This document shows, in pieces, positions 3,592-33,330 of a stretch of 35,041 bases of DNA. A program made the position numbers and the translations under genes. The stretch is from a virus. Its lineage: Duplodnaviria; Heunggongvirae; Uroviricota; Caudoviricetes. The notes under the pieces were generated by a model that was given only the letters and a program-made list of their open reading frames with translations, was not told the origin of the DNA and ran no database searches. Numbering within the stretch: position 1 is the first letter of the stretch; every line of letters begins with the position of its first letter. The stretch lies in IMG/VR virus record IMGVR_UViG_2778261545_000002; one strand, written 5' to 3'.

Positions 3592-6039
3592 TTAACCGTC
3601 ATGCATCATGCTGGCACGGGCGCGCGCACGTTTATCCCGCTCGTATTTTTCGAGCGCATCCTGTAACTGGCGGTCAAGCTGTGTCTCCGGCGCAGTACCG
3701 CCCGTCAGGCTGATGTGATATTCGTTTTTACTCTGGTCCACATAAGAGCGGCCAGCCGGTGCCGTGACCGGCTGATAAGCCTGATAGCCTGCATAAGAGC
3801 TGGTCGCCGGAATATAACCACCGGTGCCATACGTGGCGGCATTAGTCCTTGCGGCGGTCTGGTCAAGTGTGTCTGACTCTTTGTTGATAACACCGAGTTT
3901 TTCCAGTACCCAGTCAATACCACTGCGCAGTTTGTTGAACGCATTAAGCGGCAGCATCAACGCGTCAGCCAGTGCCTGCCCGAACATGACGCCCGTGTCA
4001 CGGCAACGGTTCAGGGTGTCCTGTGTGGCTTTAACCGGGGCAATCAGGTTTTTAAACCACTGCCACGCGGCCTGTAACTTTTCTCCCAGCCAGTCAAACA
4101 CCGGCTTAAGTGGCGTGAACAGTTCCCCCACCGGCGCAAATGCCGCTTTCAGCCCTTCCACCACACCGCCAAAGAATGCGCTGACAGGCTCCCAGTATTT
4201 ACGGATAAGCAACGCCCCGGCGACAATGGCGGCCACCACAGCCACAACCGGCCAGCTAATCGCCCCGATGGCCGTCATAACGGCACTGCCAACCGTCGTG
4301 AAGATTGCCCCCATTGCGCCTGCTGCCGCGATGATGGCATTGATGCCGGTGATAACCGGCCAGGCTACAAGGCCAATGGCACCGATGATGCCAGTAAGCG
4401 CCAGCGCGCCACCGGCAATGATGCCGATGGTTGACGCCAGTGATTTGTTTTTCTGGATCCAGCCGTCGAGTTTTAACACATACTTTGTGGCTGTCTGCGT
4501 GAGCTTACGCAGCGCGCCTTCCTGCTGGTCAAACAGGTCAGTCCCCACCGCCTCATAAGCGGACTGAAACTCCTTAAAGTCACCGCCGAGGTTATCCTGC
4601 ATGATTTTAACCAGCTCTTCCGTTTTACCGTCCGAGGCTTTCAGCGTGGCGGTCAGCTTATCCAGTTTTCCGCTTGCTGCCGCTGCCAGTAAAACGTTCG
4701 CTGATTTCAGGGCTTCCTCACCAAAAATGGTTTTAAGGTATTCCCCCTTCTGAGACGTTCCCAGCTTGTGTTTATCAAAGCTGGCCTGAATCTCTTTCAG
4801 AATGGTGAATAACGGACGCATATTTCCCTTTTTGTCCGAGGTTTTCACGCCAAGCTCTTTGAGTGCATCCCATGCTTTTCCAGTCGGTGCCTGTAATCGG
4901 GTGACAACGGCACTGCTACCCGTCCCCGCCATTGACCCCCTGATGTTATTGTCATGCAGCACACCTGTCATGGCTGCTGCCTGCTCAAGACTTACACCTG
5001 CCGTCCTCGCAACCGGCCCGAGGTAAGTCAGTGCATCACTGAGTCCCTGAAAATCAGCCGCCGACTTATTCATCGTTGCCGACAACACGTCGCCCACATG
5101 GCTGACATCATCATTTGACAGTTGAAAGGATGCCTTAGTCCCCAGCAACAGTTGCGCGTTTTCTTCCATCGACCGCTGATTCGCCAGTGCCATATTCAGC
5201 GTGACCGGCGTTGCCGCCTGAATAGCCGCAGCATCTCCACCCGCTTTCGCAATGATAATCTGTGCACCGGCTGCATCATCTGCCGAGGCTGCGGTATTGT
5301 CGCCGAGCTGGCGCGCCTGCTTGCGGAGTGCGGTCATTTCGGCGGAGTCTTTTGCCACACCGAGCACAGCCTGTAATTCTGAGTTTTTCTGCGCAAACTC
5401 ATAACCGGGCATCAGCAGCTTAACTCCGGCCATCGTTCCCGCAGCTGCAATCCCCACACCGGCAGCGCCCACTGAGGCCATATTTCCGGCCAGTTCCTTT
5501 CCTGCCTGATAACGCTGTTTGACTGCGTTAAGTTTTACCTGTTGTGCACTGACACGCGCCAGCGCGTCACGCTGACGGTTAAGCTGTGCGGTGGTTTCAC
5601 TGATACGGTTTTTCAGTCCCTGCTCATCATGTGCAAGATTGCGGGTATTAATTCCCACAACGGCCAGTTCCCGCTGCTGGCGTTTAACAGAATCCGTCAG
5701 GCGGTTATATTTCGCCTGTAAGTCCTCCGCCGCACGCTTTGCGGATTCCAGCACTTTCGCCTGAGCACGGGTCGGACGTTCGGTGTTTTTAAACTGTGTG
5801 GCAAGGGCTTCGGCTTCCTGCCGAGCCTTTTCAAGTGCATGACCAGTCACGGCGAGCTGTGCACTGGTCTTGCGAAATCCCTCAATACGGGATGCCTGAC
5901 CGTTCAGCTCGCGCAGTGATTTTTGTGTTTCCCGGATATCCCCCGACAGCGATTTGCTCGCTGTGCGGATGGATTTAAACGGGCGGGATGCCTGGTCAAC
6001 AGCCCTGAGCAATACCTGTAATTTTACATTGTTACTCAT
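3592..6039 (-). CDS. T: Tail tape measure protein T (815 aa)
   Basis: 815 aa as in P2 gpT; Ala/Gly-rich hydrophobic central segment typical of tape measure proteins; synteny. Confidence 0.88.
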   Translation of the reverse strand: MSNNVKLQVLLRAVDQASRPFKSIRTASKSLSGDIRETQKSLRELNGQASRIEGFRKTSAQLAVTGHALEKARQEAEALATQFKNTERPTRAQAKVLESAKRAAEDLQAKYNRLTDSVKRQQRELAVVGINTRNLAHDEQGLKNRISETTAQLNRQRDALARVSAQQVKLNAVKQRYQAGKELAGNMASVGAAGVGIAAAGTMAGVKLLMPGYEFAQKNSELQAVLGVAKDSAEMTALRKQARQLGDNTAASADDAAGAQIIIAKAGGDAAAIQAATPVTLNMALANQRSMEENAQLLLGTKASFQLSNDDVSHVGDVLSATMNKSAADFQGLSDALTYLGPVARTAGVSLEQAAAMTGVLHDNNIRGSMAGTGSSAVVTRLQAPTGKAWDALKELGVKTSDKKGNMRPLFTILKEIQASFDKHKLGTSQKGEYLKTIFGEEALKSANVLLAAAASGKLDKLTATLKASDGKTEELVKIMQDNLGGDFKEFQSAYEAVGTDLFDQQEGALRKLTQTATKYVLKLDGWIQKNKSLASTIGIIAGGALALTGIIGAIGLVAWPVITGINAIIAAAGAMGAIFTTVGSAVMTAIGAISWPVVAVVAAIVAGALLIRKYWEPVSAFFGGVVEGLKAAFAPVGELFTPLKPVFDWLGEKLQAAWQWFKNLIAPVKATQDTLNRCRDTGVMFGQALADALMLPLNAFNKLRSGIDWVLEKLGVINKESDTLDQTAARTNAATYGTGGYIPATSSYAGYQAYQPVTAPAGRSYVDQSKNEYHISLTGGTAPETQLDRQLQDALEKYERDKRARARASMMHDG

Positions 6040-6459
6040 TCGTGTTTCCGCTTCGCCGGAGCGCCTTTTCGCGCCATGTGATGAGTTCGGTCAGGCTCAT
6101 GGGATACAGTTCTGATGGCGGCCAGTGAAATATCACTGCCACATCCGCCATCAGGTCATCGACCGAGAGATTTTTCGGAAACGTCACTGCACCGAGTTCG
6201 GCGACAAAAAACCGACCACCTTACCGGCCAGCGCCACAAGGTCAGGCAGTTCCAGCGCGGCGACCTCCTGTTCGGTCAGCATCGGTGCCGTCATGCGCGG
6301 CAGCACTTTAATCAGTGCATCGACTTCGGAGTTCGCGACCGCAGCCAGACTGACACCGCGCAGCGTCCCGGCATTGGGTTTCATCAGCGTGACCTGTTCG
6401 ATAACCTGCTCACCACGCTTGACCGGATTGTCCAGGGTAATCACATTTTCTTTGTTCAT
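6032..6459 (-). CDS. E: Tail assembly chaperone E (6184..6459, 91 aa) and E+E' fusion made by programmed -1 frameshift at TTTTTTG (plus coords 6205..6211), extending to a stop at 6032..6034
   Basis: E ends ...GKVVGFLSPNSVQ*. The minus-strand heptamer T-TTT-TTG sits in E; the -1 frame continues ...FFVAELGAVTFPKNLSVDDLMADVAVIFHWPPSELYPMSLTELITWREKALRRSGNTNE*, and its stop overlaps the T start (ATGAGTAA), as in P2. Confidence 0.8.
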
Positions 6460-6515: not shown

Positions 6516-7034
6516 TCACAGGCCGATATTTCGGCGGTGTTGCTCCAGCCGGTCGACGCCGTTCACCTTCTCAATCATGTTGATGGTGTCGATTTCGACC
6601 AGCTCCTTACCGTCCATCGTCAGCCGGAAATAGGTGCAGACCACGGAGATTTTCGACTCGGTGTCTTCTCCCTGTTTACCCTCGCCGGTGTCGATTTCTT
6701 TCTGACGTCCACGCATGACCACTTCGACGGCCACCGTTTCGCCGGTATCGTCGCGCTGGTAAGAGCCTGCAAAACGAATCGGCACGGCATCCACACCGGT
6801 TGCGGCGTAAAGCTCCCAGATAACCGAATCCGGGAAGCCCCCGAGCGACCACTCCATTGACAGCGCATCGTCATCAAGGCCGAGGTCTACCGGTGCGCTG
6901 CCGTTCATCCCCGCACCGCGATAGTTTTCGAGCTTACGGGTCAGTTTTGGCAGCGTGACGGACTTTGCAACGCCCTGATAGCTGTAGCCGTTCAGAAAGA
7001 CGTTCATTAACTTGAGTTTGCGCGGCATTGCCAT
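6516..7034 (-). CDS. FII: Tail tube protein FII (172 aa)
   Basis: Length and position match P2 gpFII. Confidence 0.85.
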   Translation of the reverse strand: MAMPRKLKLMNVFLNGYSYQGVAKSVTLPKLTRKLENYRGAGMNGSAPVDLGLDDDALSMEWSLGGFPDSVIWELYAATGVDAVPIRFAGSYQRDDTGETVAVEVVMRGRQKEIDTGEGKQGEDTESKISVVCTYFRLTMDGKELVEIDTINMIEKVNGVDRLEQHRRNIGL

Positions 7035-7046
7035 CGGTCAGTCTCC

Positions 7047-8237
7047 TTAATTGCTGTTAACCGAAGTGACCAGATTTGCCAGGTATTTATCGGTGATACG
7101 CTGGCGCAGGGTCAGGTTTTCGAGAGGAGGCACCGGGGTATAGTCGTAGTCGATATACAGTTTTCCGGCCTTGAGGGTTTCCGCATCGTTGGATTCTTCG
7201 CTGAACCAGCAGGTCGCATCCACGATATAGCCGTTTGTTTTCAGCTCACGGAATTTGGCATTGATGCCGTCAACGATGTCGCGAATCAGCGTTGCGGTGA
7301 TGGGCTTGTCCACCGCCCACATGTGCGCCTCAGCCATCGTATCGGCCAGCACCTGCGCGGTGCGGGTGTAGTTTTCAAAGAGGAAAAGCGGGTCATCAGA
7401 GCAGGTACGGTTACCCCAGAATCGGAAACCGTCACGGCGAATCAGCGTAGTGACGCCTGACTCGTTAAGCAGGTCAGCATCGGTGCCGGACTCCTGCAAA
7501 TCCCAGAATACAGATGCGCTGATGCCGGTAACACCGTTCACCCCGACATTGGACAGCGTTTTATGCCAGCCCTGCTCCTGGTCGATTCTGGCACGCAGAC
7601 CCAGCGCACGGGCGGTGGCATACGCGGTGGCGGTGGTGCTGGTGACCGTATCCCATGCGAGGAAATCCGGCCAGATGACCATCAGCTCACGCTGGCTGAA
7701 ATTCTGGCGGTAGGCTTTCACCTCGGAAATGGTCTTACAGCCCCATGCGCTGATATACCCGAAAGCGCGCAGCTTCTGACAGACTGATGCCAGTGCAACA
7801 GCCACCTCTTTGGTGTCCAGTCCCGGCACACCGAGAATACGCGGTTTAACACCGGTTACCGACTCCGCCGCCAGCAGGGCTTTCAGTCCGGTGTACTGAC
7901 CGTTTTCGTCGGTGGTGCCGATGATATTGGATACGGTCTGCGCGAGTTTCGTTTCCTCGTCGTCGCCGGTGCCGTCTTCCACACGCACAACAACGGTGAC
8001 CGGTTTTGACTGGTCAGCGATGGCCTGCAACGATGCCGCCAGCGTGCCTTTTTTACCAGCCTTTGCAATTGCACTCTGCACATTGGTAATCAGCACAGGT
8101 TTATTGAGGGGGAAGGTTTCCGCATCCGCATCGCTGGCCGTGCAGACCAAGCCGACAATGGCAGTGGATACGGTGGAAATGACGCGGGTGCCGTCGTTAA
8201 TCTCCAGCACCTGCACGCCGTGATGATAGTCACTCAT
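7047..8237 (-). CDS. FI: Contractile tail sheath protein FI (396 aa)
   Basis: Length and position match P2 gpFI; begins MSDYHHGVQVLEINDGTRVI... Confidence 0.88.
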   Translation of the reverse strand: MSDYHHGVQVLEINDGTRVISTVSTAIVGLVCTASDADAETFPLNKPVLITNVQSAIAKAGKKGTLAASLQAIADQSKPVTVVVRVEDGTGDDEETKLAQTVSNIIGTTDENGQYTGLKALLAAESVTGVKPRILGVPGLDTKEVAVALASVCQKLRAFGYISAWGCKTISEVKAYRQNFSQRELMVIWPDFLAWDTVTSTTATAYATARALGLRARIDQEQGWHKTLSNVGVNGVTGISASVFWDLQESGTDADLLNESGVTTLIRRDGFRFWGNRTCSDDPLFLFENYTRTAQVLADTMAEAHMWAVDKPITATLIRDIVDGINAKFRELKTNGYIVDATCWFSEESNDAETLKAGKLYIDYDYTPVPPLENLTLRQRITDKYLANLVTSVNSN

Positions 8238-8424: not shown

Positions 8425-8454
8425 TGACAGTCTGCTTTGAGCGAGGAGCAGACT
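8425..8454. repeat. Hairpin-forming element, left copy (8-bp stem AGTCTGCT/AGCAGACT, 10-nt loop), at the left GC-to-AT boundary of the cargo island
   Basis: Inverted repeat read directly; 23 of 30 positions identical to the copy at 10529..10558, with a compensatory stem change. Confidence 0.6.
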
Positions 8455-8623
8455 TAACCTTTTAGAGTGTAATTTTCCAAGAAATATAGCATTATCAAAT
8501 TAGCAAAAGGCATTAGATGATTTTATATTCATTTCATTAGCCGCAAGTTAGGTATGGACCGATGAGAGATGATTACAGAAATCAGTCGGATCATTTTACA
8601 GTACTTTATGAGTGTGGATTGCT

Positions 8624-10420
8624 ATGAGTAAAACCTACCAAGAAATTATTACAGAACTGATTGATCGCATTTATCAAAAGAAGAATACATCAGAAACTAC
8701 TAAGATCATATTGAAAGCACACTTTACTCAGACATCTTCTAGCAGAAACTTGACCTTAGATACGCTGGGTAAACTACCTGAACTCAAGAAAGAGGTCACG
8801 AGAGAAAGAGCACGTCAGATCATATCAAAATTCTTAAATCAAGACTTGCCGTCAGAACTAAGTCGGCTCAACCGAGGCTTGGTAGCAGGTGATACGATTA
8901 CCCTAGCTGCGAAAACTGACCTTATTCAATTGAAGAAATTGATTGAAATATTAATCGGAAAAATAACGACCACTAAAAAACCAGTATTTTCAAATAAAGT
9001 CCAAAGCACTCTTATAGCAGCAGGTGTAATTGATAGTAACATTTATCTTCCTATAGTTACTCAGTTAGCAAAATCATTCGAAATAAATGCACATTTCAAA
9101 TTTCATGAATATAATGGACATCAAATCATACTGGAAGAAAATCATAATCCCAAATCCATTACTAGCGATTTAATCACATATGCCGGAAAGATATCAACGT
9201 ATTTTGGTGGTTTATTTTCAATAGAAAAACTTGCTGTTTGTTCATGGGAGTCAGACCCTCCTGGTTTTATTAGGGAAATTCCTGATGAAATTAAGGTGCA
9301 ATATATATCTGACTTAATTTCAACTGAAGAAGATTTTTTATCTATTTCTAATGGACGTTTTTATGCTTTCACGTCTCGTGACGAAAGAGTTAGTCGAATT
9401 CTCAAACCAATTTTTATTCATTATAAAAACCCACTAAAAGTTGAAAGAGTTATATCTGCTTTAAAAAGGGCCCTTACACACAACTTCCGTCGTAGTGCAG
9501 ATGCCCGTCAACCCCCCTGCCTAGAGCTTCTAGAAAGCGCCGATGGTGCTCTGGACGATTATTGTTTGAAAACTGGATTACTACAAGAGTCAACACCCGG
9601 TTATAGAATACCTGGAGATAGCCTTTATTCAGAACTCCAATTGGAAGATGTCAGTGGTACTATCCATTATCAAGTTATTGCCTTAAATGCTATAAAATCA
9701 AATGGTGGCCCCTTAGACTCAATGAGCATTGGTAGGGAATTAAAAGGGAAAATCCCGCAAGCTTTCAAATCATTGATTTTTAGTTATCCAACCTTGTATT
9801 ACAAAGAAGGTGGCGGGAGACGAAATGATTACTACAAACCACTTGATGATGAATATATTCCAACCAAGCAAGTGGCTCGGCCTATCGATACCAGAATGGA
9901 AAGAATAGATAGTATAAGAAGAAAAATAACAGACATCATAAGCGAATTGGATTCACTAGATGTGCTGGGAACCTTTTTAAGAAAGACTCGTGCAGAACAA
10001 GCATTACTTCGAGAATACCTGCTCCTTCAACAATCGCTGTTATATAGCAATGAAAATAATGTAGGGGTCTGTGAGATTTGCGGAAATTCATGGCCGCATG
10101 CTATTCTCATTGCTGCGCATGTGAAACCTAGATCTAAATGCACACATGAAGAGCGAGCAGATTTCGATAACATAGCAATGTTGCAATGTGCAATATGTGA
10201 TTCACTTTTCGAAAATGGTTTCATTGCCATTCGTTCAGATGGAAAAGTTGCAATTAGCCGAGATAAAAAAATGACCACACACCTTGCGCAAATGTATTCT
10301 ACAATCGAAAGAAGAACCATTCCTTACGTCAACGGAAACACAAACCGTATGAAATACATACAATACCATTGGGTGAATATATTCAAAGGTGAAAGTTCTT
10401 TATTTGATATTAAATCGTAG
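8624..10420 (+). CDS. Cargo protein in the P2 Z/fun hotspot: N-terminal sigma-70 region-4-like HTH plus C-terminal HNH (4-Cys, AHxxP-type) nuclease motif; candidate anti-phage defence or abortive-infection nuclease
   Basis: AT-rich ORF on the opposite strand to the flanking late genes. N-term ...TLDTLGKLPELKKEVTRERARQIISKFL resembles the sigma-70 r4 HTH; C-term CEICGNSWPHAILIAAHVKPRSKCTHEERADFDNIAMLQCAICDSLFENGF fits a C-x2-C...H...N...C-x2-C HNH. Start is ambiguous between GTG 8612 (track) and ATG 8624; neither has a strong Shine-Dalgarno. Confidence 0.7.
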   Translation: MSKTYQEIITELIDRIYQKKNTSETTKIILKAHFTQTSSSRNLTLDTLGKLPELKKEVTRERARQIISKFLNQDLPSELSRLNRGLVAGDTITLAAKTDLIQLKKLIEILIGKITTTKKPVFSNKVQSTLIAAGVIDSNIYLPIVTQLAKSFEINAHFKFHEYNGHQIILEENHNPKSITSDLITYAGKISTYFGGLFSIEKLAVCSWESDPPGFIREIPDEIKVQYISDLISTEEDFLSISNGRFYAFTSRDERVSRILKPIFIHYKNPLKVERVISALKRALTHNFRRSADARQPPCLELLESADGALDDYCLKTGLLQESTPGYRIPGDSLYSELQLEDVSGTIHYQVIALNAIKSNGGPLDSMSIGRELKGKIPQAFKSLIFSYPTLYYKEGGGRRNDYYKPLDDEYIPTKQVARPIDTRMERIDSIRRKITDIISELDSLDVLGTFLRKTRAEQALLREYLLLQQSLLYSNENNVGVCEICGNSWPHAILIAAHVKPRSKCTHEERADFDNIAMLQCAICDSLFENGFIAIRSDGKVAISRDKKMTTHLAQMYSTIERRTIPYVNGNTNRMKYIQYHWVNIFKGESSLFDIKS

Positions 10421-10524
10421 ATCTGTATCCAGATATAAGTAAGAACTAGGGCTCTAAACCCTTTATAGTATTGAGGGATTATTGAGAAATATTAATAAAC
10501 GTAATATCAATGCTCTTTTGATGC

Positions 10525-10582
10525 AATTTGACAGTCCGCTTTTGGCACAGAGCGGACTGTCAGATTAGGCTTTACTCTGTGC
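10525..10582. promoter_or_regulatory. Two mutually exclusive hairpins between the converging cargo gene and G: A (16-bp stem 10525..10540/10551..10566) and B (9-bp stem GGCACAGAG 10544..10552 / CTCTGTGCC 10574..10582)
   Basis: Inverted repeats read directly; hairpin A contains the right copy of the repeated ~30-bp element (10529..10558). No clear U-tract on either strand, so a classical intrinsic terminator is uncertain. Confidence 0.5.
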
Positions 10583-11149: not shown

Positions 11150-13468
11150 TTATACCTGCGCCACGTTATACCAAGTCCCGTTAATGTATTTCTGCACCGG
11201 TCTGTAATATACGCCACCAATGTTATCGGCAGAGTTTGAGCCGGTATCCTGAACAATAATGCCGGAATATACACACCCGGACGGTGCCTGATGTGTCCAT
11301 GTCATGCCATTGTTCGCAGGTTTGTATGTGGCAGCACCACCAAGCCGGATATCCCGGACATAGCGTGAATCAAAATTACTATAGTTAGATGGTGATACCT
11401 GCCCGTTAACAGCAAAAGTGATGCTGTTATCTGTATTTCTCTGACTGTAAAAATGCCAGCCTGCATCATCACCTAATTCAGCCACCACCGGACGACTTGA
11501 GTTTCCCCACAAATTGAATGCGGCTTCCTTCGTGGATGTATTGCTGCTGCTGACCGTGAACTTTTTCCCGCTACCGGCACGTACTTTGGTACTTGAGACA
11601 ATATCACCTGTAACACTCAGGCCATGCCCCATTGACACTCCGCCATTGGCGTTATTGATAGTCAGCGGCCTTAAACCGTTCCATGTCCCAAATTTATCGC
11701 CAGAGGCCGTCAGCATTAAATATGTGCTGCCGCCATCATTCCTGATAAAGAATCCATAATTGCCATAAGCAATGCGCAGACCATTAGCACTGAGTGATGT
11801 AATCTCACCTCTTGAACGGAGACCATAAGCGGAGCTGAGTGATAATTCTTCCTGAGCATCAGTATTACCAGTCGCCCAGCGAACTACCCCGCCCTGTACT
11901 GTTTCATGCCAGACAGTGTCTCCTTCTCCACCACGAAACTTTCTGAGATATTTTTTGCCGCCTCTGGTGCCTGAACATAAGGCCGTAGACATATAGGCAT
12001 TCTGGCTACCGCCGTCCTGATTAATCGTTCCGGTCATTTCGTCGCCCTGACGATTCCAGTCACGACGCCAGCCGGGGGAGTAGCCGTCCCCATGATTAAT
12101 GTAAGTGAATTGCGCGCTGGTTGTACCGCCACCACTTGATGTTGTCGGCGTGGTCACTCGGATAGTGATTGCAGATTTAATTCCCATGACCTCGACGACA
12201 CAACCAGCCAGGTGGATATCACCACATCCGGTATCCGTAATGATTTTGTTATTTGCATATGACCAGGAGCCTTTGCACATCCAGTACGGATGATTAAATG
12301 CACCACGGGAATCCAGCCATTCAATAAACTGAGCGGTTGTCCAGTTTCCGGCTTCAGTACTCAAAGCGCCGCTATAAGCACGACAGGCACCGATATTTTT
12401 CGTGAAGGTATCCTTTCCCGGAATATCCGCACCATTCTGATCTTTCTGAAGACGTTTTTCAGCATTGTCATAGGCAGACTTCACCGCTTTTGGTGTTGCG
12501 GCCAGTGTTTCAGAATCACTATTGGTGGCGCTACTTAGCTGGACAAGACCTTTTCGCGCGGTGGTGGCATCCTGTGCAGTGTATTTCCCGTTAGCAAGGT
12601 CATACGCAGCCTTTACCGCCTTTAGCGTTGCCGCAAGCGTTTCAGAATCACTGTTGGTGGCGCTACTGAGCTGAACAAGGCCTTTTCGCGTTGTGGTGGC
12701 GTCCTGTGCAGTGTATTTCCCGTTAGCAAGGTCATATGCTGCCTTTACCGCTTTCGGCGTTGCGGCGAGCGTTTCAGACGTGCTGTTGGTGGCACTACTG
12801 AGCTGGACAAGGCCTTTTCGCGCTATGGTGGCGTCCTGTGCGGTATATTTCCCGTTAGCAAGGTCATACGCGGCCTTTACCGCTTTCGGCGTTGCGGCCA
12901 GTGTTTCAGACGTGCTGTTGGTCGCACTGCTTAACTGAGTAAAACCTTTTGCGGTCAGCGAGGCGTCCGGGTGACGTCGTGACTGTTCGTGCTCTGCAAT
13001 TTTGTCATCAACGTAATCCTGCGTCGCCATCACCGTTGTGGTGTCAATGGTCAGCTCCACTGAGGCCACACTGCTGACGATGATGACCATGCGGCAGGTC
13101 TGCGAACGCCCTGAGCCTTCGGCAAGTGCGGGTTTATAACTTTCGGCCATGTTCGCCACGGCAATTAACGTTCCCGCATCATCGTACAGGCCAAGCTCAC
13201 GCATCCAGAAACCGCCCACCTCCGGCGGAATAACCAGCTCTGCGATAATATAATTACTGTTTCGTTTGTCCTGGCTGATTTTGTTCAGCGCATGTCGCCA
13301 GACTTCATGGATAAGCCCGGTCTGTCCGGCATCCGGGACAGGCAATTTACCACCGCCATCCCCGACGGCCATAGTGGTAATGTTGACCTTCCGCCCTCCC
13401 GGTGCGGTTGCCGCTGCCAGCTTTGCTGCACCGGCAGTGGTGATAACGGTTCTGAATTTTGTGCTCAT
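11150..13468 (-). CDS. H: Tail fibre protein H (772 aa) with internal tandem tail-fibre repeats
   Basis: Position between I and G; contains about 3.6 copies of a 44-aa repeat KGLVQLSSATNS[TD]SETLAATPKAVKAAYDLANGKYTAQDAT; longer than P2 gpH (669 aa). Confidence 0.85.
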   Translation of the reverse strand: MSTKFRTVITTAGAAKLAAATAPGGRKVNITTMAVGDGGGKLPVPDAGQTGLIHEVWRHALNKISQDKRNSNYIIAELVIPPEVGGFWMRELGLYDDAGTLIAVANMAESYKPALAEGSGRSQTCRMVIIVSSVASVELTIDTTTVMATQDYVDDKIAEHEQSRRHPDASLTAKGFTQLSSATNSTSETLAATPKAVKAAYDLANGKYTAQDATIARKGLVQLSSATNSTSETLAATPKAVKAAYDLANGKYTAQDATTTRKGLVQLSSATNSDSETLAATLKAVKAAYDLANGKYTAQDATTARKGLVQLSSATNSDSETLAATPKAVKSAYDNAEKRLQKDQNGADIPGKDTFTKNIGACRAYSGALSTEAGNWTTAQFIEWLDSRGAFNHPYWMCKGSWSYANNKIITDTGCGDIHLAGCVVEVMGIKSAITIRVTTPTTSSGGGTTSAQFTYINHGDGYSPGWRRDWNRQGDEMTGTINQDGGSQNAYMSTALCSGTRGGKKYLRKFRGGEGDTVWHETVQGGVVRWATGNTDAQEELSLSSAYGLRSRGEITSLSANGLRIAYGNYGFFIRNDGGSTYLMLTASGDKFGTWNGLRPLTINNANGGVSMGHGLSVTGDIVSSTKVRAGSGKKFTVSSSNTSTKEAAFNLWGNSSRPVVAELGDDAGWHFYSQRNTDNSITFAVNGQVSPSNYSNFDSRYVRDIRLGGAATYKPANNGMTWTHQAPSGCVYSGIIVQDTGSNSADNIGGVYYRPVQKYINGTWYNVAQV
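12470..12949. repeat. Tandem 132-bp repeat array (about 3.6 copies) inside H
   Basis: Near-identical 132-nt units visible in the DNA (e.g. 12550 vs 12682); they encode the 44-aa repeat on the minus strand and a mirrored repeat in the antisense track ORF 12693..12938. Confidence 0.85.
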
Positions 13469-15262: not shown

Positions 15263-15894
15263 AGAGGTCCCCCTGTTGTGCTGCCACTGTCGCCGGGGTG
15301 TTTATGGGTATGCAGTACCTTACCGTTTGATGAGAGTTCACCGCCGGTGTGTTCAATGTTGCCGCGCATCGTCCCGCCCTTCTGCACTTCCAGCGTGCCG
15401 GTAATCAGTCTGTTGGTGCAGACCACCTCCGGTGTGTCCAGGGTGATGCGGGTTGATGCTTTCACCATAACCACCGGCACCGAGGCAGTAACAGAATCAG
15501 AAGCCGTCACGCTGGCCGTTTTAATTCCGCTTACCGTGAGTGCACTGGTTTCGGGTTCATACTCAATCACCGCCCCGTCAGGGAAACGGATATGCAGGGC
15601 ATCCGCCGACGCAGACGGCGCGGGGTTATCACCGGAATAAATCCCCGGCAGAACAAACGCCGTGTCAAGTTCACCGCCCACGGCCAGAATCAGCACCTGC
15701 TCCCCCACGGAAGGTGCCCACCATGTGCGCGAACGCCCGGCACGACAGGTCAGCCACTGAAGCCAGTCGGTGCACATGCCGCCGGTCTGCACACGGCAGC
15801 GACCGGCGTTAAGGTCGGTTTCAACGATAATGCCGGTGCGGATCATGTTGCGCAGTGCGCGCGCGAGTTCCTGAATATTTGCGAGAGTGTTCAT
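15259..15894 (-). CDS. V: Baseplate spike protein V (211 aa)
   Basis: Length and synteny with P2 gpV. Confidence 0.82.
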   Translation of the reverse strand: MNTLANIQELARALRNMIRTGIIVETDLNAGRCRVQTGGMCTDWLQWLTCRAGRSRTWWAPSVGEQVLILAVGGELDTAFVLPGIYSGDNPAPSASADALHIRFPDGAVIEYEPETSALTVSGIKTASVTASDSVTASVPVVMVKASTRITLDTPEVVCTNRLITGTLEVQKGGTMRGNIEHTGGELSSNGKVLHTHKHPGDSGSTTGGPL

Positions 15895-15905
15895 AACGGG
15901 AAGGA

Positions 15906-15929
15906 TGCCGCCGGGTCATACCGGCGGCA
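15906..15929 (-). terminator. GC-rich hairpin between S and V (9-bp stem, 6-nt loop)
   Basis: Stem TGCCGCCGG / CCGGCGGCA read directly; lies in the S-V intergenic region where P2 has the P_V late promoter, so it may terminate or attenuate read-through from S. Confidence 0.4.
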
Positions 15930-15960
15930 ATGTGACGATGAGGTGTCGGGAATGGCACAA

Positions 15961-19427: not shown

Positions 19428-20171
19428 TTAACTGGCTTTCTTTTTCGGGCGTCCACGTTTTGCCGGTGTCGCGCTCCTGGTCTTACGCGGGGCGCAGGTG
19501 GCCGCTTTTGGCTGTGGCTCCGGCTTCGGTTTCAGCTCCCGCTCCAGTCGTTCAATCTCTTTTTTGACGCCTGCCTGACAGTCGAGCTGTGTCGCACGTT
19601 GCAGGTGCGCCAGCGCCCCTGCGGCATCACCAGCGTCACGCAGAAACAGACCGGTGATTTTGTGCAGCTTTGCGCGCACTTCATCAGGCATGTCAGCCGT
19701 GGCGGTCAGTTCGAGGGTGTCCGTCAGCAGGCGGGGATCCACAGACTCACCGGCAGCGTGGGCGCGCATGGCCGCGAGCGCCACCTCCTCGGTGAACATG
19801 TACGGCGGGGTGCGACGGTGTTTACCCGGCATGGTCAGACCGTACTTCAGGGCATAACGGGCAATCTCCAGCGCACCGGCAATATCGCCGGTATCCAGAC
19901 GCCACAGCATGACCGTCATCAGAATGTCATCCTGTGCACCTTTGCCCTGCTCCAGCACGCCGTTCACCCACGGCAACCAGAACGGCAGCAGTTCGCGTTT
20001 TTTCGCGGCCTTCAGCTCTTTTGAATAAATTGCTTTCAGTGTGCGCTGGTCTGCGGCCAGCTTGACCAGCATCTGCTCATAGACAGTTGCATGTCGCAGC
20101 GGGGCGGCTTCCCGCTGCGCGGTCATCGCTGCCGAGACCCGCATCATGTGGCGCTGTGCGGGACTCGTCAT
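19428..20171 (-). CDS. M: Terminase small (endonuclease) subunit M (247 aa)
   Basis: Length and synteny with P2 gpM; basic C-terminal tail. Confidence 0.82.
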   Translation of the reverse strand: MTSPAQRHMMRVSAAMTAQREAAPLRHATVYEQMLVKLAADQRTLKAIYSKELKAAKKRELLPFWLPWVNGVLEQGKGAQDDILMTVMLWRLDTGDIAGALEIARYALKYGLTMPGKHRRTPPYMFTEEVALAAMRAHAAGESVDPRLLTDTLELTATADMPDEVRAKLHKITGLFLRDAGDAAGALAHLQRATQLDCQAGVKKEIERLERELKPKPEPQPKAATCAPRKTRSATPAKRGRPKKKAS

Positions 20172-32647: not shown

Positions 32648-32909
32648 CGAGACCTAACCACATCAACCAGCCGTCACGAATCTCTTTAGGACGGCTTTCA
32701 TAAGCCAGTTTTAGTCCGTTATTCCATGCCGGAAGGTATACCCAATATTCACCAGCACGCCCCGATACTGACTGAGGGTCAGTAATCTCAATAACTGGTA
32801 ATTTCCCTTTCTCAATCATGCCCCTTACAGCTCTTGGAGTTTTACCAATGAGTTTTGCAAACTCCTGATAAGGCACGGCATCAGTCACGCTTACAAGCTG
32901 TCTATTCAT
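32634..32909 (-). CDS. cox: Cox: excisionase and repressor of the lysogenic promoter (91 aa)
   Basis: 91 aa as P2 Cox; transcribed divergently from C across a short switch region. Confidence 0.78.
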   Translation of the reverse strand: MNRQLVSVTDAVPYQEFAKLIGKTPRAVRGMIEKGKLPVIEITDPQSVSGRAGEYWVYLPAWNNGLKLAYESRPKEIRDGWLMWLGLGEPR

Positions 32910-32933
32910 CTGCTACGATTCTCCCTTAGTGCT

Positions 32934-32953
32934 TCTAATGGCTCCTAATGGCT
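32934..32953. promoter_or_regulatory. Tandem 10-bp direct repeat (TCTAATGGCT / CCTAATGGCT) in the cox-C switch region: candidate operator
   Basis: Two helical-turn-spaced repeats between the divergent cox and C starts; P2-family C repressors bind direct repeats in this region. Confidence 0.4.
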
Positions 32954-33030
32954 AATTATTGCCTAAAAGGATAACTCCAGAAGCACAACATTTCACACCA
33001 TCAGCAAGAAATTACGCAATCGGAGTAATT

Positions 33031-33330
33031 ATGTCAATAGACGTTTCGGAGAAGTTGAAGCTAATCCGTGAATCTGAAAGGTTAAACCGTAAAGAATTCA
33101 GTGAATTAACTGGTGTAGCCTACAGCTCACTTTCGAGCTATGAGAGCCGGTCAAAAAACGCTGGAGTTGAAGCCATAATGAAGGTCTTACAACATCCTAG
33201 ATTTACTAAATATACTTTGTGGTTCATGACTGATCAGGTAGCTCCAGAAGCCGGGCAAATTGCGCCCGCTCTCGCACACTTTGGGCAAAACGAAACAACG
33301 TCGCCCCACTCCGGTCAAAAGACTGGTTAA
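33031..33330 (+). CDS. C: Immunity repressor C (99 aa)
   Basis: C-terminal ...FTKYTLWFMTDQVAPEAGQIAPALAHFGQNETTSPHSGQKTG matches P2 C as I recall it; the N-terminal half appears divergent. Track ORF trimmed to the internal Met. Confidence 0.78.
   Translation: MSIDVSEKLKLIRESERLNRKEFSELTGVAYSSLSSYESRSKNAGVEAIMKVLQHPRFTKYTLWFMTDQVAPEAGQIAPALAHFGQNETTSPHSGQKTG

Follow-up and report, generated by a model that had tools for sequence, protein, structure and literature searches.

Phage P2 produces a pair of tail proteins that begin at one start codon. Specifically, a 91-amino-acid (aa) E product and a 142-aa E+E' product share one start, and the longer protein arises by a -1 ribosomal shift at the sequence TTTTTTG (PMC3091744). 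PMC3931495 describes the same T6G slippery run, an E' frame that reaches 37 nucleotides (nt) back into E, an E' without a ribosome-binding site, and an overlap between E' and the start of gene T. The fusion is reported to be made at about 7-10% and to be essential for tail assembly (Christie 2002, as cited in PMC3091744, PMC3931495, and PMC5009743), and, in P2 and its relatives, shifting is put at two to three times the efficiency of the lambda G-T event, for which the product ratio is about 30:1 (PMC5009743). Here, we examine the E/E' locus of the IMG/VR virus record IMGVR_UViG_2778261545_000002, a 35,041-nt stretch of DNA that we call the window. The E, E', and T genes all lie on the minus strand, to which the coordinates below refer unless stated otherwise, and we read the region on both strands. 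The locus very probably specifies a programmed -1 ribosomal frameshift within a P2-type tail operon, FI-FII-E-E'-T-U-D, of a P2-like Escherichia coli prophage.

The E/E' frameshift is already known: it has been experimentally established in P2 since 2002 (Christie et al., J Bacteriol 184:6522), it is annotated in the P2 reference, and it serves as a stock instance of the frameshift that tail-chaperone genes conserve. In that year, Christie, Temple, Bartlett & Goodwin are said to have verified the P2 shift with fusion polypeptides, to have found approximately 10% shifting, and to have demonstrated by complementation that E' is essential. An initial annotation of the window, made from its sequence, had named the P2 E/E' tail-chaperone frameshift at this site. 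P2 identity, Pfam families, and gene order all bear that naming out, and the E/E' observation is confirmed in every detail.

The E/E' cassette

Gene E occupies 6459..6184, runs from ATG to TGA, and encodes the 91-aa 0-frame product. This protein aligns with that of P2 gene E and matches the tail assembly chaperone family Pfam PF10109 Phage_TAC_7 (2.6e-12, 47 bits versus a cut-off of 25). The 3' end of E reads ...AAG GTG GTC GGT TTT TTG TCG CCG AAC TCG GTG CAG TGA. It follows that TTTTTTG occupies 6211..6205 and that its first T is the third base of a codon. Thus, the codons GGT TTT TTG at 6213..6205 present the slippery heptamer T-TTT-TTG in the X-XXY-YYZ phase, which is the phase needed for tandem -1 slippage and the same as that of the P2 site. 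The heptamer, which the initial annotation had placed at these very positions near the 3' end of E, is found on direct reading six codons ahead of the E stop, within the E/E' overlap. The -1 frame is closed upstream by a TAA at 6223..6221 and is open from 6220, and it therefore overlaps E by 37 nt (6220..6184).

The E' extension (6205..6032) consists of 57 codons in the -1 frame followed by TAA (6034..6032). Counted from the heptamer G at 6205, its translation is VAELGAVTFPKNLSVDDLMADVAVIFHWPPSELYPMSLTELITWREKALRRSGNTNE, and it matches Pfam PF06528 Phage_P2_GpE (1.2e-21). The open frame had been put at about 58 codons, ending in a TAA within ATGAGTAA at the T start, and that description agrees with the 57 codons and the stop found here. 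The ATGAGTAA junction occupies 6039..6032, where the ATG of T (6039..6037) overlaps the E' stop. The entire E+E' span, 6459..6032, would encode a 142-aa fusion with one base read twice; at 428 nt, it is equal in length to the P2 join. Gene T (6039..3592) follows. It encodes a tape measure protein of 815 aa that aligns with P2 gene T and matches Pfam PF10145 PhageMin_Tail (2.1e-44).

The likeness to P2 extends well beyond the cassette. The window is collinear with P2 (NC_001895) at approximately 94-98% identity over most of the phage genome, bar a few accessory regions, and its tail block is collinear with P2 17433-24382 at 94.4% identity. By this measure, the window is a P2-type (Peduovirus) prophage of E. 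coli. From 60 nt 5' of the heptamer to past the T start, the window aligns with P2 and phage pro483 without a single difference. Given this invariance, the frameshift signal is P2's own, not merely a similar one. The P2 record carries a joined coding sequence, "E+E'", at 19430..19685,19685..19857, labelled as a -1 frameshift product and as an essential tail protein whose N-terminus is shared with gpE, and it also marks a frameshift-site feature (NC_001895, P2p25/P2p26). Common to the two phages are the order FI-FII-E-E'-T, the 91-aa E, the 142-aa E+E', the heptamer phase, the 37-nt overlap, and the ATGAGTAA junction. The differences are nine substitutions across the initial 206 positions of the E-region alignment, one of which alters an amino acid (S29 in P2, N29 in the window), and the setting: the window copy is a prophage in an E. 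coli chromosome with different accessory genes. A 701-nt segment spanning the site matches 82 phage records, mostly Peduovirus/P2 relatives at 95-99% identity, and 1,587 of 5,426 complete E. coli genomes.

On this reading, the majority of ribosomes would read E to its TGA and release 91-aa gpE. On U-UUU-UUG, a minority would step back by a single base while the P site holds tRNA-Phe paired to UUU and the A site holds tRNA-Leu paired to UUG. Subsequently, these ribosomes would decode GUC GCC GAA and so on, reading 57 further codons in the -1 frame to produce 142-aa gpE+E', and they would stop at the TAA that overlaps the AUG of the tape-measure gene T. Tandem slippage predicts the junction ...KVVGFL-VAELG.... 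A junction peptide VVGFLVAELGAVTFPK would indicate a slip after Leu decoding, and the peptide VVGFFVAELGAVTFPK would indicate either a P-site slip before Leu decoding or an mRNA with an extra U (GFFV). By analogy to lambda gpG and gpGT, gpE and gpE+E' would serve jointly as chaperones of tail assembly, their ratio held constant by how often the shift occurs: the E part present in both would attach to the tape measure, and the E' domain would connect the tape measure to the tail tube.

Conservation of the shifted frame

An earlier scan of viral contigs had returned near-identical relatives (99% identity in 79 of 80 loci), which are uninformative for conservation. Spread sampling and a scan of GTDB genomes were used instead. 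The resulting set comprises 81 sequences: 14 divergent phage records from spread sampling of tblastn matches, 66 usable bacterial loci on contigs of GTDB species-representative genomes, and the window. Identity of the E protein across this set ranges from 100% down to 33%.

Loss of the -1 open frame among relatives, an outcome that the initial annotation had raised, was looked for: 80 of the 81 sequences keep E' in the -1 frame. The exception is Enterobacter sp. EA-1 (CP025776.1), in which T5 stands in place of T6; the single-base loss puts E' beyond the reach of a -1 shift. The heptamer T-TTT-TTN is present at the homologous position in 78 of 81 sequences, as TTTTTTG (68), TTTTTTA (6), TTTTTTC (2), or TTTTTTT (2). 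Two relatives possess other canonical heptamers: C-CCT-TTC in Klebsiella phage Kp4861-1 (positions 643-649 of its sampled locus, L095) and G-GGA-AAG in Mannheimia phage PHL101 (positions 682-688 of locus L098). The downstream junction is similarly retained. In 47 of 81 sequences, the T start precedes the E' stop codon by 5 nt, in the form ATGAGTAA or ATGAGTGA, and most of the remainder have other short overlaps.

Two further observations concern the -1 frame itself. Where E' is clear of any other gene, the three codon positions of the -1 frame show 0.37/0.20/0.84 bits of variability, a pattern that is the signature of a translated frame and points to protein-coding selection. Moreover, similarity among relatives in the -1 frame begins right at the heptamer, and in 37 of 46 relatives, no ATG, GTG, or TTG occurs in that frame between the heptamer and the conserved domain. 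A search of PDB sequences for structural homologues returned nothing significant, and a search of NCBIfam yielded no family for the E+E' fusion.

The public sequences also vary in the length of the T-run. Besides the T5 of Enterobacter sp. EA-1 (locus L148), there exist in-frame E-E' fusion proteins of 142 aa (P0001, reading GFFV) and 141 aa (P0007, reading GFV), as expected from T7 and T4 runs, respectively. Such variants may be homopolymer sequencing errors or real mutants. One sampled locus (L005) has a premature stop at E codon 55.

Other routes to E' expression

Three explanations other than a programmed ribosomal shift deserve consideration. The simplest is that an open frame happens to lie beside a T-run and that neither has any function. 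TTTTTTG is indeed frequent in the window, at 21 copies versus 12 +/- 3.9 expected, and the heptamer by itself is not significant. The arrangement is another matter. All open reading frames (ORFs) of 90 aa or more in the window together contain 69 in-phase X-XXY-YYZ heptamers, whose -1 frames stay open for a median of 10 codons, and the E/E' site alone combines at least 57 open -1 codons with no more than 10 codons to the 0-frame stop. The strong PF06528 match in the -1 frame, the retention of the arrangement down to the most divergent E proteins, codon-position variability of the kind seen in a translated frame, and the experimental literature on the P2 E/E' frameshift likewise oppose coincidence, to which we assign essentially no weight. 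A second possibility is transcriptional slippage, in which RNA polymerase would stutter on T6 and add an extra U to some mRNAs, allowing normal reading into E'. The slip site is a homopolymer run, T6 here and T7 in Smp131 and Zymomonas pZM36, and the in-frame 142-aa and 141-aa database proteins suggest that its length varies in assemblies. E. coli RNA polymerase, however, generally needs a run of more than six T to slip appreciably. In addition, the X-XXY-YYZ codon phase is strictly conserved, which polymerase slippage does not require, and the two relatives with the non-homopolymer heptamers G-GGA-AAG and C-CCT-TTC keep the -1 arrangement, fitting ribosomal and not polymerase slippage. The P2 literature also ascribes the event to translational frameshifting (PMC3091744, PMC3931495, PMC5009743). 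We consider slippage by the polymerase very improbable.

Equally hard to credit is the idea that E' is an independent small gene, expressed as a free 51-aa protein from its own GTG start at 6187..6185 and requiring no frameshift. This GTG does lie in the -1 frame, at 18 nt 3' of the heptamer, and PGAP, in its annotation of the matching E. coli chromosome, calls a 156-nt coding sequence there for a 51-aa "GpE family phage tail protein". The window's GTG, however, is shared by only 3 of 46 relatives, most of which have GTA, ATA, or TTA; the 37 relatives noted above lack any in-frame start ahead of the conserved domain; -1-frame similarity starts at the heptamer, which is upstream of the GTG; and P2 E' is stated to have no ribosome-binding site (PMC3931495). 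The initial annotation had held that standard annotation would miss E+E'. It is correct that PGAP leaves the two parts unjoined. E' is not overlooked, however: it is called as a separate gene, and the P2, L-413C, and Smp131 records do carry the join. The practical value of the finding lies in annotation: PGAP still splits E/E' into two genes and starts E' at a GTG absent in most relatives.

Nothing speaks against the frameshift itself. Some more particular points concern the junction, the protein roles, and the source of efficiency. The residue at the junction differs between deposits. Specifically, the deposited gpE+E' of phage Wphi (P0005, NCBI) has GFLVAELG at the junction, as tandem slippage predicts; in-frame 142-aa entries (P0001) read GFFV, as expected from seven T in the DNA; and the P2 RefSeq join re-reads T19685, implying GFL-F-AELG (GFLF). 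Because the deposited junctions disagree, the residue given is an annotation convention rather than a measured fact. The chaperone roles of E and E', and the division of labour between them, are drawn by inference from lambda. The heptamer is a weak one: published E. coli reporters put U-UUU-UUG shifting at 0.12% when no stimulator is present, and the figure reaches 0.25% if the IS911 stimulator is added and 0.77% if the strong IS3 pseudoknot is (PMC4066793). Being an intrinsically poor shifter, the heptamer alone does not explain the efficiency reported for P2. Finally, no canonical stimulator is found at the site. Folds of the region downstream of the heptamer yield no stable hairpin or pseudoknot at a distance of 5-9 nt, the spacing given for stimulators on the 3' side (PMC5009743). 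A Shine-Dalgarno (SD)-like element does lie upstream, 5 nt from the heptamer and outside the 9-14 nt at which SD-like sequences are reported to stimulate -1 shifts (PMC5009743).

A frozen SD-like element beside a weak heptamer

The SD-like sequence is AAGGTG at 6222..6217, which comprises codons K80 (AAG) and V81 (GTG) and is a candidate context element. Across 49 enterobacterial-type E genes, codons for conserved residues show variability of 0.4-1.9 bits, except at K80, V81, and the heptamer codons. K80 is AAG in 43 of 43 cases, and V81 is GTG in 48 of 49. By parsimony on a neighbour-joining tree of 46 sequences, the median number of third-position changes is 6, compared to 0 at K80, 1 at V81, 0 at G83, 0 at F84, 1 at L85, and 0 at the first E' codon. 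Other Lys codons on the same tree underwent 7-10 such changes, and the tail genes of the window favour AAA over AAG by 61 to 29. Enterobacterales prophages therefore share a synonymously frozen block, AAG GUG NNN GGU UUU UUG UC. Within it, AGGUGRUY can pair with the 16S rRNA 3' end (GAUCACCU), with predicted energies of -10 to -17 kcal/mol.

The weakness of U-UUU-UUG versus the P2 efficiency, together with the frozen AAGGUG, suggests an uncharacterised context element. We tentatively raise the idea that AAGGUG is a non-canonical short-spacer stimulator, or a tuner, of -1 frameshifting that lifts the weak heptamer to the P2 level; this is possible and rather doubtful. The element may already have been noted in the 2002 study by Christie and colleagues. 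In Vibrio phage MAR (L097), GGAGGUGAUG ends 14 nt upstream of TTTTTTC, which is a canonical -1 stimulatory distance.

Several RNA structures were considered as well. The nearest predicted hairpin has 3-4 base pairs (bp) and begins approximately 2-3 nt after the heptamer, and the P2 literature reports no structure at the site (PMC3091744). The 100 nt that follow the heptamer have an unusually favourable predicted folding energy (-38.9 kcal/mol, z = -3.3), and a hairpin is predicted inside E' at 6154..6112, with a 10-bp stem formed by 6154..6145 (CUGAUGGCGG) and 6121..6112 (CCGCCAUCAG), 51 nt downstream of the heptamer. RNAalifold predicts this stem from 46 sequences at 95% pairing, and the only compensatory event, a G:C to C:G exchange, is tied to a Pro-to-Gly change. 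Across the 46 relatives, synonymous sites in the stem are no more conserved than neighbouring sites. We rejected the stem as a stimulator on the grounds of its single compensatory event, its lack of excess synonymous conservation, and its distance, which is too great for a classical stimulator; it may simply reflect the conserved DDLMAD...HWPPSE peptide. A long-range helix between upstream AGGU.GUCG and downstream CGAU.GACCU (CGAUGACCU) was also set aside. It is 96.5% paired in 47 sequences, and its sole variation, G:C to G:U, follows automatically from GAY and YTG codons. The third base of V81, which is frozen, would be unpaired in this helix, and therefore pairing of the element with the anti-SD sequence fits better. 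The U-run was additionally matched by RNAalifold to GCGGAAA close to the T start, through weak U-A and U-G pairs that we attribute to chance.

A second block of low synonymous change spans approximately 6047-6067, in the last E' codons just 5' of the T start (GCG..CAG CGA AGC GGA). Its rare codons CGA and GGA are retained in 39-44 of 46 relatives. The block probably marks where ribosomes bind to translate the tape-measure gene, a site lying within the E' coding sequence.

Neighbouring genes and other features of the prophage

The E/E' site sits between the tube gene FII and the tape-measure gene T, as expected for a P2-type late operon. FI (8237..7047), the first gene of the F operon, encodes the tail sheath (Pfam PF04984, PF17482, PF22671). 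FII (7034..6516), directly upstream of E in the operon, encodes the tail tube (Pfam PF04985 Phage_tube, 2.3e-60).

Elsewhere, the window departs from P2 at several places. A 2.08-kb insert at 8453-10533, not in P2, occupies the P2 fun(Z) accessory-gene position between the F operon and the tail-fibre genes. It harbors an ORF on the plus strand (8612-10420) for a 602-aa protein with a C-terminal HNH nuclease domain, which scores 21 bits against Pfam HNH_2, at the cut-off. The protein also matches PADLOC HNH and type II restriction models, down to 5.6e-9, and has a weak match to a phosphorothioate-DNA restriction endonuclease family. No tblastn match to it was present in 50,697 phage records, and, of 5,426 complete E. 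coli genomes, a single one contains the insert DNA, that of strain SBF45, which matches at 100% identity and from which the window probably derives. The ORF may be a rare anti-phage cargo gene. In the region of the tail-fibre gene H, at 12467-12968, a 132-bp unit is tandemly repeated in 3.4-3.8 copies with 85-88% matches; P2 has a single copy of the unit. P2 orf30 is missing at window positions 15894-15959. Finally, no alignment with P2 was obtained for approximately 300 bp at the position of the P2 C repressor and early promoters (32887-33201), suggesting that the immunity type differs.

Relation to lambda G/GT and dnaX

Among tail operons, the obvious comparison is lambda G/GT (Levin, Hendrix & Casjens 1993; Xu, Hendrix & Duda 2004, 2013, 2014). 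Analogous to the E/E' locus, lambda has two overlapping ORFs between the major tail gene and the tape-measure gene; close to where the first ORF ends, a -1 shift yields, next to an abundant short product, a scarcer one with a C-terminal extension (PMC5009743). The proteins themselves are a different matter. The E/E' products in the window show no sequence similarity to those of lambda, the Pfam scan gave PF10109 and PF06528 only, and PMC3931495 likewise states that E/E' and lambda gpG/gpT have no amino-acid similarity. The relation to lambda G/GT is therefore one of analogy and position, not homology. The systems differ further in their heptamers, T-TTT-TTG in the window and G-GGA-AAG in lambda; in efficiency, which for P2-type sites is described as two to three times that of lambda (PMC5009743); and in tail type, given that the P2-type tail is contractile and has a sheath, whereas lambda has a siphovirus tail.

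With regard to mechanism, the reference point outside phages is E. coli dnaX, where the heptamer A-AAA-AAG is flanked by two elements, an SD-like one upstream and a hairpin downstream. The E/E' site resembles dnaX in its predicted tandem -1 slippage on X-XXY-YYZ and in its conserved upstream SD-like sequence. It departs from dnaX in having no stable hairpin at the 5-9 nt spacer in the window and in the spacing of the P2-type AAGGUG, which lies 5 nt from the heptamer rather than following the 9-14 nt rule (PMC5009743). The outcome differs as well: the shifted product of the P2-type system is longer, not shorter, than the product of the 0 frame.

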